19,594 bases of DNA from a virus. A program made the translations under genes and the position numbers. Numbering within the stretch: the first letter of the stretch is position 1; each line of letters begins with the position of its first letter. Location of the stretch: UHGV virus genome UHGV-0143126; one strand, given 5' to 3'. The notes beneath the pieces were generated by a model that was not told where the DNA came from, did not search any database, and was given only the letters and a program-made list of their open reading frames with translations. This document shows, piece after piece, positions 7,624 to 9,390 of the stretch.

Positions 7624-7914
7624 ATGGAAGGAAATGATTACGACAAACTTCGTGCATTAATTGCGCAAAATGCCATAGCGCGAAATCTTGGTGTGACGCC
7701 GCAAGCGGTGAATCAGTGGTTTTCAAAAAGCACAATTCCTGCTCGTTTCGTTTTACGAGTATGTGAAGTAGTTGCATGGAAGGTTACGCCTCATGGCTTA
7801 AGGCCAGATCTTTATCCTCACCCTGAAGATGGAATTCCTAACTTGTTACGCAAAAGCCTAAATCCAAGTTCACCACACAGAGCGGATGGAATACACGCAG
7901 GAGATAAACAATGA
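7624..7914 (+). CDS. Cro-like repressor of the YdaS/Cro type, 96 aa
   Basis: ...AIARNLGVTPQAVNQWFSKSTIPARFVLRVCEV... resembles Rac YdaS as recalled; divergent from cI; stop overlaps the next start (ATGA). Confidence 0.65.
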   Translation: MEGNDYDKLRALIAQNAIARNLGVTPQAVNQWFSKSTIPARFVLRVCEVVAWKVTPHGLRPDLYPHPEDGIPNLLRKSLNPSSPHRADGIHAGDKQ

Positions 7915-8618
7915 ACACCGCAATTTTTAACGGCAAAGCATCCATGACCAGCGTTGAGATCGCAGAGCTGGTGGGAAGCCGACCAGATAGTGTTAAGAGA
8001 ACTATTGAAACACTGGCTAAAAAGGGAATCATCCAATTTCCACAGACTGTGGAAATTGAGAATAAACAATCACTTGGGCCTCGCCGATTTTCTAGCGCGT
8101 ATGTATTCGAAGGTGAACGAGGTAAGCGCGACAGCATCATTGTCGTCGCACAGCTCTGTCCTGAATTCACAGCTCGCCTGGTAGATCGCTGGCGCGAACT
8201 GGAAGAACAGATCCGTAAGCCAATGAGCGAAATCGAAATGGTTGCCGCGATGGCTCTTGAAGCCGTTCGCCAACAGAAACGGATCACTCAGGTGGAAGAA
8301 AAAGTCAGCCACGTTGCTGAAACAGTCGAGCAAATTAAAAAGGGCACTATTCGTGAGGGCTATGCCGGATATCGCCAACTGAAAGCAAAAACCGGTTTGT
8401 CAGATGATAAATGCCGCAATCTGGTGAACGCCTATCAGATTCCTACAGACACCCATGAGTTCATGACGCCGGACGGATTGTTGTCACGTCGCGCAATTGT
8501 TGCTGTGGAACCGTTTATGGCTACTTTTTATCGGGTTATGGAGGAAGCAGAACCGCGAGGGACTCGCTGGTATCACCCGAAAATGGGGTTATTTCAGGTT
8601 ATTGGTTGGCAGCGGTGA
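7911..8618 (+). CDS. Rha-family phage regulatory protein (antirepressor-like N-terminal domain), 235 aa
   Basis: N-terminal ...SMTSVEIAELVGSRPDSVKRTIETLAKKGII... typical of the phage Rha domain; GGAGA RBS. Confidence 0.6.
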   Translation: MNTAIFNGKASMTSVEIAELVGSRPDSVKRTIETLAKKGIIQFPQTVEIENKQSLGPRRFSSAYVFEGERGKRDSIIVVAQLCPEFTARLVDRWRELEEQIRKPMSEIEMVAAMALEAVRQQKRITQVEEKVSHVAETVEQIKKGTIREGYAGYRQLKAKTGLSDDKCRNLVNAYQIPTDTHEFMTPDGLLSRRAIVAVEPFMATFYRVMEEAEPRGTRWYHPKMGLFQVIGWQR

Positions 8619-8642
8619 AAAAAAAGCCGGGAGTAACCCGGC
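8618..8642 (-). terminator. Strong intrinsic terminator oriented for leftward (minus-strand) transcription
   Basis: Hairpin GCCGGG-AGUAA-CCCGGC (8626-8642) followed on the minus strand by U8 (A8 at 8618-8625 on plus). No U-run on the plus side. Confidence 0.55.
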
Positions 8643-8841
8643 TCACTCAACATCAATAACGGGGAGCTGTTTCGCATAAAACGGTTCCGAAACATCCAAG
8701 AACAGTTCTAAAGATATCAGCAGCTATATGATCATTTCAAGACCAAATATTGATTCTGCAATTTCGGGACGTTACACTGTCTCCGCACCTTATAAAGCGG
8801 GTGCCGGGGGTCGCAGCCCGGAATTGCATACGGCGATATAC

Positions 8842-8861
8842 GACGCGCCAGCGTCTTTTTT
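8842..8861 (+). terminator. Weak terminator-like element (5-bp stem GACGC/GCGTC then TTTTTTA)
   Basis: Short stem, 4-nt loop, T6 run. Could be an attenuator ahead of the replication-gene block. Confidence 0.3.
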
Positions 8862-9027
8862 ATCGTCCGCGCTCACGCACGCCAGAATTATGGTGGGCTG
8901 GGCAGGGGAGCCGAAAGGCTCGCCGGTTTCCGTATGCGCCGGTACTGCGAACCCTGTTCAGTCTGCCACCAGTGAGTTTCGCAGCTCCGGTGGTGGAAGT
9001 TATCCATTGCATACGGAGGCTGCCATC

Positions 9028-9390
9028 ATGGCTACAGTCCCAACTTCCCCATACCTGAAAATTGAAGTTGTCAACGGCAAGGCCGTTATTTTCTCCCTGC
9101 ATGTTGCCTGCCACTTCAAGCGCATGCATCAGAATATCGTCGACAAAATCGAGTATCTGAACTGCTCGCGTGAATTCTTCTCCCGTAATTTCATACCGGG
9201 TACTTACCACGTGTATGGCGATTCCCTGCGTGGTTATTACATCACCCTTGATGGCCTGATGATGCTTCAGCTTGGGTTAAGTCTGCGCACAATGCGGTAC
9301 TACGAGAGCTGCATTGAAGCATTCCATGAGGCAGAGAACAGCCTGAATCTTACCGCTTTCTGCTGTAATCAATGGGAGGTTCGCCCATGA
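9028..9390 (+). CDS. Hypothetical protein, 120 aa (start moved to ATG with GGAGG RBS)
   Basis: ORF-track frame 8728..9390; the 5' 300 nt has no RBS and a Ser/Ala/Gly/Pro-rich translation, so ATG 9028 is preferred. Confidence 0.55.
   Translation: MATVPTSPYLKIEVVNGKAVIFSLHVACHFKRMHQNIVDKIEYLNCSREFFSRNFIPGTYHVYGDSLRGYYITLDGLMMLQLGLSLRTMRYYESCIEAFHEAENSLNLTAFCCNQWEVRP

Follow-up and report, generated by a model that had tools for sequence, protein, structure and literature searches.

We analysed the gap between rha and the replication genes in the UHGV virus genome UHGV-0143126 and read it as an RNA immunity cassette of the P4/P1 type, formed by an IsrK RNA and a C4 antisense RNA and probably placed ahead of the replication operon of a lambdoid prophage; we put the probability of this reading at about 0.85. 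The window, that is, the whole 19,594-nt (19.6 kb) stretch analysed, was recognised as the early region of such a prophage from its list of open reading frames (ORFs) together with Pfam and PHROG matches. On the same evidence it holds a cI-like repressor gene on the - strand (6801-7496) and, on the + strand, a cro-like gene (7624-7914) and rha (7911-8618), after whose stop codon the gap begins. To the right, a gapless run of + strand ORFs leads from 9028 to O-like, DnaC-like and DnaB genes and extends to 13364; its first member starts at ATG 9028, not at 9029. By BLAST, positions 8560-9100 show 100% identity to a prophage carried by E. coli ATCC 43886, and the stretch from rha to the cassette is ~96% identical in several Stx2a- and Stx2d-converting phages. 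A preliminary description of this DNA had treated the gap as an anonymous non-coding stretch and had suggested an Rfam scan as a check. That scan returned isrK and C4 above threshold, and the two RNAs cover 8785-8861 and 8886-8973.

The IsrK small RNA (8785-8861, + strand; Rfam RF01394) is the equivalent of seqA in P4 and of a1-b1 in P1. It was matched over its full length and on the + strand with 57 bits, against a curated threshold of 50. It comprises two 5' hairpins, the decoy segments a1 (8811-8816) and b1 (8826-8833), and an intrinsic terminator (8842-8855) followed by six uridines (8856-8861). The preliminary description had seen this last part as a weak, attenuator-like rightward hairpin with a T-run (8842-8861); the hairpin exists, and we identify it as the leaky IsrK terminator, which in Gifsy-1 is read through (PMC4825925). 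IsrK lies just downstream of its own promoter (8750-8778, + strand), made of TTGATT (8750-8755), a 17-nt spacer and TACACT (8773-8778), with a predicted start at G8785; the -10 hexamer ends 6 nt before the IsrK 5' end at 8785. The order is thus promoter, IsrK, 3' intrinsic terminator and then C4. The promoter is unchanged among relatives, and BLAST matches that lack rha start at ~8747, just 5' of the -35 hexamer. In E. coli ETEC4090 (L060 1651-2900), an insertion with an 'integrase core domain' gene, insertion sequence-like, sits at the -35 hexamer of the IsrK promoter (about window position 8749); it splits the rha spacer from the cassette and constitutes a natural promoter disruption.

The C4-type antisense RNA (8886-8973, + strand; Rfam RF01695) was likewise matched over its full length and on the + strand, with 80.4 bits against a curated threshold of 45. 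Its closing stem of 17 bp (8891-8907 with 8952-8968) encloses a GAAA hairpin (8908-8921), a second hairpin (8922-8943) that carries the segment b' (8929-8937) in its loop, and the segment a' (8945-8951, CUGCGAA), which is single-stranded. The GAAA-tetraloop hairpin pointed out earlier is therefore genuine, with its place now at 8908-8921, and is the first internal arm of C4. The minimum free energy (MFE) fold of C4 is the same as the Rfam model, at -45.7 kcal/mol (z = -3.9).

Relatives of the cassette were gathered by pattern scans of viral contigs, and 31 distinct modules, the window and P4 included, were aligned. Across the helices of IsrK and C4, 99.8% of cells were paired and 19 pairs were compensatory, compared with at most 46% pairing in slid controls. 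C4 alone contributed 27 pairs, 99.8% paired, of which 11 were compensatory with both sides changed (slid controls, at most 49%). The covariation check that had been proposed for this gap across homologous prophages thus supports conserved folds.

The CCACC/GGTGG pair of the preliminary description was also recovered, at 8963-8970 with 8989-8996 (hairpin 8963-8996, + strand). It is conserved: pairing reaches 97.6% in relatives, where four pairs have both partners changed, against at most 75% in slid controls, and P4 has the compensating GCUAUCGCC/GGCGAUAGC. Because the 3' strand of the C4 closing stem takes part in this hairpin, whose loop displays the segment a2 (8978-8984), we regard the hairpin as an alternative fold of the unprocessed transcript. 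In the MFE structure of the read-through RNA (z = -4.8), a1 and b1 of IsrK are paired in cis with a' and b' of C4. This arrangement resembles 'structure A', the translationally silent, inactive form of the Gifsy-1 read-through RNA (PMC4825925).

The segments exposed by C4 have complementary partners on both sides. The segment b', UCCGUAUGC, is complementary to b1 in IsrK and to b2 (9009-9017), and a' is complementary to a1 and to a2. In the region of b2 and the start codon (9009-9030, + strand), b2 overlaps the Shine-Dalgarno sequence GGAGG (9015-9019) just upstream of ATG 9028, and the sequence GGAGGCTGCCATCATGGCTACA, which joins Shine-Dalgarno sequence and start, recurs unchanged at the start of P4 kil. 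We found that a' and b' were 94.9% paired with the downstream a2 and b2, with a covariation of 0.489 against 0.127 in shuffles, and 97.0% paired with the upstream a1 and b1, with 0.653 against 0.145. There are eleven distinct b' hexamers, each with correspondingly altered b1 and b2; b2 is the exact complement of b' in eight of the 11, differs by a G-U pair in two and is mismatched in one. A helix that sequesters the Shine-Dalgarno sequence (8981-8988 with 9015-9023) is 93% paired with weak covariation, and is possibly a real structure.

The 11 b' hexamers and four a' variants occur in 14 combinations (L006-L057 alignment). The b' GTATGC, for example, is found with either CTGCGAA or GTGCAAA as a'. 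Because one b' occurs with different a' segments, the alignment suggests that the two specificity segments of C4 are reshuffled.

The ORF at 9028, which C4 would gate, encodes a 120-amino acid Rha-domain regulator (9028-9390, + strand) and is the first of the gapless run that leads to the replication genes, as judged from Pfam, PHROG and the ORF layout. Its product matches Pfam Phage_pRha with 31 bits (cut-off 29.9) and PHROG 995/518/373, which are Rha-like or anti-repressor families. In relatives the gated cargo is a kil-like protein of 63-64 amino acids, a Rha-like protein of 120-122 amino acids or a longer ORF of 183-265 amino acids. The cassette of the window is flanked by two distinct genes of Rha/antirepressor type (7911-8618 and 9028-9390) that have no similarity to each other.

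Both RNA genes are spanned by a long open frame (8728-9390, + strand). It starts 22 nt upstream of the -35 hexamer of the IsrK promoter, passes through both RNAs and runs in frame into the 9028 Rha-domain ORF, as in the nested frame of P4. The preliminary description had judged that the stop-free frames of the gap reflect RNA structure rather than coding, and that they are junk-like and have no ribosome-binding site (RBS). We agree on RNA structure in place of an ordinary protein gene, and disagree on junk frames without RBS: one of the two, the frame at 8728-9390, begins at a conserved ATG, reaches the downstream gene from upstream of the promoter without a stop in 40 of 42 distinct relatives, and is equivalent to the P4 long frame that leads into kil. 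The relatives use three different registers across IsrK, with spacers that differ by 38 and 83 nt. An ATG is found again at this place, seven codons ahead of the -35 hexamer, behind unrelated upstream sequences, and in one relative it follows a GGGAGG Shine-Dalgarno sequence. A second AUG, at 8890, forms part of AAUUAUGGUGG, at the 5' end of C4. It does not vary among the relatives, and its counterpart in Gifsy-1 is the first AUG of orf45. ATG 9028 of the window follows 138 nt downstream in the same frame, and 41 of the 42 relatives likewise share one frame between the C4 AUG and the downstream ATG. In one of the relatives (L021), whose long frame begins with a strong GGGAGG Shine-Dalgarno sequence, a copy of the 120-amino acid Rha-domain gene that follows the cassette in the window is found ~290 nt upstream of the cassette, which may be a tandem or shuffled one.

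A first close parallel is the immunity region of P4 (PLE, seqA, CI RNA, seqC and kil, with the nested frame eta), in which Rfam finds isrK and C4 in the same order. P4 shares with the window the three-way complementarity, the GGAGGCTGCCATCATGGCTACA junction and replication genes downstream, and its promoter PLE stands at the same distance from the IsrK 5' end as the promoter of the window. Like the frame at 8728, the P4 frame (8812-8168) starts at ATGs upstream of PLE, where they overlap the ORF88 stop, and continues through seqA, CI and seqC into kil. Translation of the frame eta reportedly occurs only on transcripts from the upstream promoter PLL and is said to prevent Rho-dependent termination, so that these transcripts escape immunity. 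P4 differs from the window in having ~83 extra nt between IsrK/seqA and C4/CI, and in gating the 65-amino acid kil instead of a Rha-domain protein. It is a satellite and not a lambdoid phage with its own cI and cro, and it has no leftward terminator upstream, where the ORF88 stop overlaps the start of the long frame.

A second parallel is the isrK - orf45 (STnc1160) - anrP locus of Gifsy-1 in Salmonella (Hershko-Shalev et al. 2016, PMC4825925), in which the IsrK terminator is read through and short and read-through forms arise from one promoter. Gifsy-1 has isrK and C4 matches in the same order and spacing as the window, a regulator gene as gated cargo, and a promoter (TTGACA-17-TATATT) at the same distance from the IsrK 5' end. 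The orf45 start AUG lies inside C4 at +106/107, which corresponds to window position 8890. In the alignment the stop codon of orf45 is a UGA overlapping the AUG of anrP, whereas the frame of the window is fused to the downstream gene. We compared AnrP with the 9028 protein and detected no similarity between the two. In contrast to the window, the Gifsy-1 cassette follows the Q antiterminator gene in the late region (L134 33400-34350), a position which implies that the cassette moves as a unit between phage contexts with different cargo genes.

The immI region of P1 and P7 (c4 RNA, icd and ant) supplied the founding members of the Rfam C4 family. In P1, a' and b' of c4 pair with a1 and b1 upstream and with a2 and b2 downstream, b2 lies at the RBS of the first ORF, and the short segments set the specificity. 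P1 differs in being a plasmid prophage, with icd and the antirepressor ant as cargo. This kind of cassette is already known, because Barquist et al. (PMC3632133) treated seqA as IsrK and CI as C4, and reported such cassettes from lambdoid prophages of Salmonella. The locus itself is mis-annotated in public records as a protein.

We base the reading of the gap as an immunity cassette on family membership, folds, three-way covariation of the targets, overlap of b2 with the RBS and a conserved open frame, each established here; C4 processing, repression, polarity and translational bypass we infer by analogy with P1, P4 and Gifsy-1. In the mechanism we propose, transcription would start at about 8785 from the predicted sigma-70 promoter at 8750-8778, and most transcripts would end at the 8842-8861 terminator to give a 77-nt IsrK RNA. 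The remaining transcripts would read through and be processed into C4 RNA (~8891-8968), whose b' and a' would pair with b2 and a2 downstream. The 9028 ORF would then not be translated, because b2 covers its Shine-Dalgarno sequence, and polarity would keep the closely packed downstream genes off, the replication genes included. A superinfecting phage of the same specificity would probably be blocked in the same way. Since IsrK carries the target copies a1 and b1, it could hold C4 in cis or titrate it in trans; the trans role is modelled on Gifsy-1, where short IsrK turns the read-through mRNA on. Transcripts from the early promoter that come in through cro and rha would carry ATG 8728 and might be translated across the RNA genes into the 9028 ORF. 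Such transcripts could bypass the C4 block, which those from the cassette promoter could not.

Several observations weigh against this interpretation. IsrK on its own folds no better than shuffles (z = -1.3), and the Rfam model c4-a1b1 (RF03163) scores 18.5 bits at 8772-8824 in the window, below its threshold of 46.7. Gifsy-1 reaches 48.1 with that model; the a1 and b1 sites of the window are present and covary, its score with the model notwithstanding. The pattern scans fixed parts of C4, so that helix 3 is invariant by construction. As regards the bypass, ATG 8728 has no clear Shine-Dalgarno sequence in the window, and the frame is broken in two relatives (L022 and L032). Gifsy-1 orf45 is out of frame with anrP, with their ATGs 134 nt apart, which indicates that read-through translation is not universal.

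If correct, the cassette reading predicts a second, RNA-based layer of immunity ahead of the replication operon, and it offers a simple sequence rule for immunity types, written in the 11 b' and four a' variants. It also marks out the "Ash" families of Pfam and PHROG as consisting for the most part of translated RNA genes.

The left end of the gap carries a unit that is separate from the cassette and that the cassette leaves unexplained. An intrinsic terminator for leftward transcription (8618-8644, - strand) reads GAGCCGGG-UUACU-CCCGGCUU followed by U8. Its GCCGGG/CCCGGC stem (8626-8642) abuts eight adenines of the + strand (8618-8625), the first of which is the last base of the rha stop. With eight pairs, six of them G-C, and a fold of -15.3 kcal/mol (z = -3.4), it ranks second among the terminator-like sites of the window. 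No other site in the window combines a perfect, GC-rich stem of 6 bp or more with T7; in 300 dinucleotide shuffles such sites numbered 0.003 on average. The strong, leftward-only terminator at the rha stop that the preliminary description had reported is thus confirmed, and its proposal that the terminator implies a leftward transcript is supported by our analysis.

The terminator belongs to a 110-nt spacer, from the rha stop to ATG 8728, that occurs in 237 complete E. coli genomes, always in the order rha, spacer, cassette. The spacer falls into three sequence types that are ~73% identical to each other, and the terminator is present in all three. Conserved islands are the A-run with the hairpin, GCTCRCTCAAC, the block ATCCAAGAAC (8694-8703) and, on the minus strand, TGnTATYTT and TTGAAA at 18-nt spacing. 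The last two form a leftward promoter-like site (8711-8740, - strand), in the window TTGAAA (8740-8735), an 18-nt spacer and TG-n-TATCTT (8719-8711). In the other two types it reads TTGAAA-18-TGnTATTTT, and in each of the three it is the sole promoter-like call at the homologous position. Over the three types the site predicts an RNA of 80-92 nt with the conserved block at its 5' end. TTTCAAG is kept in spacer types 1-3 even though the surrounding codons of the long frame differ, and is absent in relatives without spacer and terminator.

These features define a candidate leftward small RNA of ~85 nt (8618-8704, - strand), which would start near 8704, end at the terminator and add to the cassette instead of replacing it. 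From its 5' end it would consist of a conserved block, GUUCUUGGAUGU (+ strand 8692-8703), a variable hairpin in the middle, a linker rich in U and A, and the terminator. We hold this proposal tentatively, at slightly less than even odds. It is favoured by a terminator far beyond chance with no leftward gene to its right, by the TTGAAA-18-TGnTATYTT arrangement common to all spacer types, by the retention of TTTCAAG, by the ATCCAAGAAC block at what would be the RNA's 5' end, and by the constant context of the spacer among E. coli genomes. On the other side, the promoter-like site matches at 9 of 12 positions, a score reached by chance about once per 700 nt. The terminator lies within a block that is near-identical together with the rha 3' end, so that its conservation is not independent evidence. 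The candidate RNA folds with a z score of only -1.6, and variants within each spacer type give no support for the middle stem. No Rfam family reached threshold on the - strand of the gap, a full-text literature search with the sequence strings of the RNA gave no paper, and a search of the window for trans targets of ATCCAAGAAC gave only the block itself. A scan of genome_contigs for the spacer produced one match, in a Chthoniobacterales metagenome-assembled genome (L132 7838-7898); it has no similarity outside the pattern and is probably due to chance.

The promoter of such an RNA would stand back-to-back with the IsrK promoter, and the RNA would be antisense to the 3' untranslated region of rha and to the leader of the 8728 frame. 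Early transcripts that enter the cassette could be cut or silenced by it, or it could use its conserved 5' end to act in trans. In position it would resemble lambda oop, a short RNA transcribed leftward between an early regulator gene and the replication genes and ended by an intrinsic terminator. Lambda oop overlaps the 3' coding part of cII, whereas here the U-run reaches no further than 8618, the final base of the rha stop codon, which it just touches, with no overlap with the coding end of rha.

Alternatively, the leftward terminator may exist without a dedicated RNA, as an insulator against antisense transcription entering rha, cro and the immunity region, or as a relic of an older arrangement, an explanation against which we would bet modestly. 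It fits the lack of a supported leftward gene or Rfam family and the weak evidence for a leftward promoter. It also fits a rha-linked variant of the Stx2_14040 type, which has an ORF in place of the terminator. It does not explain the conserved -10-like, -35-like and ATCCAAGAAC islands in an otherwise diverged spacer. In that variant (L061 1554-1800, L017), which lacks the leftward terminator, the ATG of the ORF overlaps the rha stop and the ORF runs in the same frame through the cassette.

The leftward unit (8618-8740) is the only element of this locus that may be new. A more specific proposal, which we consider doubtful, is that the RNA of the 110-nt spacer (~85 nt, with GUUCUUGGAUGU as its 5' end) forms a third RNA layer that decides whether early transcription overrides RNA immunity. 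If so, the leftward RNA would be antisense to the long-frame leader that lets early transcripts bypass the C4 block, and this layer would gate the switch-on of the replication operon by early-promoter transcription.

The public annotation offers a different account of the cassette. RefSeq, through the Prokaryotic Genome Annotation Pipeline (PGAP), gives the locus as a single 'ash family protein' of 220 amino acids (window 8728-9390; L001 3669-4331) without any RNA gene, so that the region would be the N-terminal half of a protein with no RNA function. This account draws on the PGAP annotation, on the frame being open in most relatives, on a Pfam Phage_ASH (PF10554) match of 60 bits and on PHROG 3960/995. 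The Pfam match covers amino acids 16-108, that is, nt 8773-9051, which is exactly IsrK, C4 and their targets, and the translated RNA region is also what PHROGs 3960, 995 and 821 match. The Ash families of both databases therefore look to be built largely from translations of RNA genes. Variability (entropy) is even over the three codon positions of 8728-9390 (0.61/0.60/0.56), with no third-position bias, and the amino acid identity of the peptide is always below the nucleotide identity among relatives. By these measures the peptide is not under protein-like selection. The same is said of the orf45 peptide of Gifsy-1 in the part of PMC12197685 that summarises PMC4825925. Against a plain protein also stand the 19 compensatory pairs and the three-way antisense covariation, the promoter and intrinsic terminator inside the 'gene', and the repression of this region by an RNA in P4 and P1 (PMC3632133). 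We consider the protein account highly improbable: the covariation and the codon-position data rule out a plain protein gene.

Among the remaining proposals for the gap was a cis-acting antitermination site. For comparison, HK022 put consists of two cis-acting stem-loops without a promoter of their own, and nut of a boxA followed by a boxB hairpin. The preliminary description had considered an element of the nutR/tR1 or put kind, for which the location downstream of early genes, a hairpin followed by a C/A-rich, G-poor stretch (8645-8663) and the absence of a recognised N gene in the window could be cited. We regard it as scarcely credible, in view of the lack of any boxA-like match within 8619-9027 and of hairpins that belong to RNAs with their own promoter, terminator and covarying trans targets, namely IsrK and C4. 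The hairpin at the rha stop, for its part, has a 5' run of eight adenines, the signature of a terminator on the other strand. A PRE-like establishment transcript, also suggested earlier, is rejected because it would stop at once at 8618-8644, before reaching cro or cI. Two small minus-strand ORFs (8594-8695 and 8737-8829) were unsupported as genes, the first of them crossing the terminator.

Further sites were recorded near the repressor gene. A search for operator-like repeats shared between the cI/cro region and the cassette promoter found none. A strong terminator lies directly after the cI-like gene (6773-6789, - strand). Between that gene and the next leftward helix-turn-helix gene, a cluster of promoter-like sites (6670-6758) contains the 16-nt direct repeat TCAAGnnAnAATTGAT.

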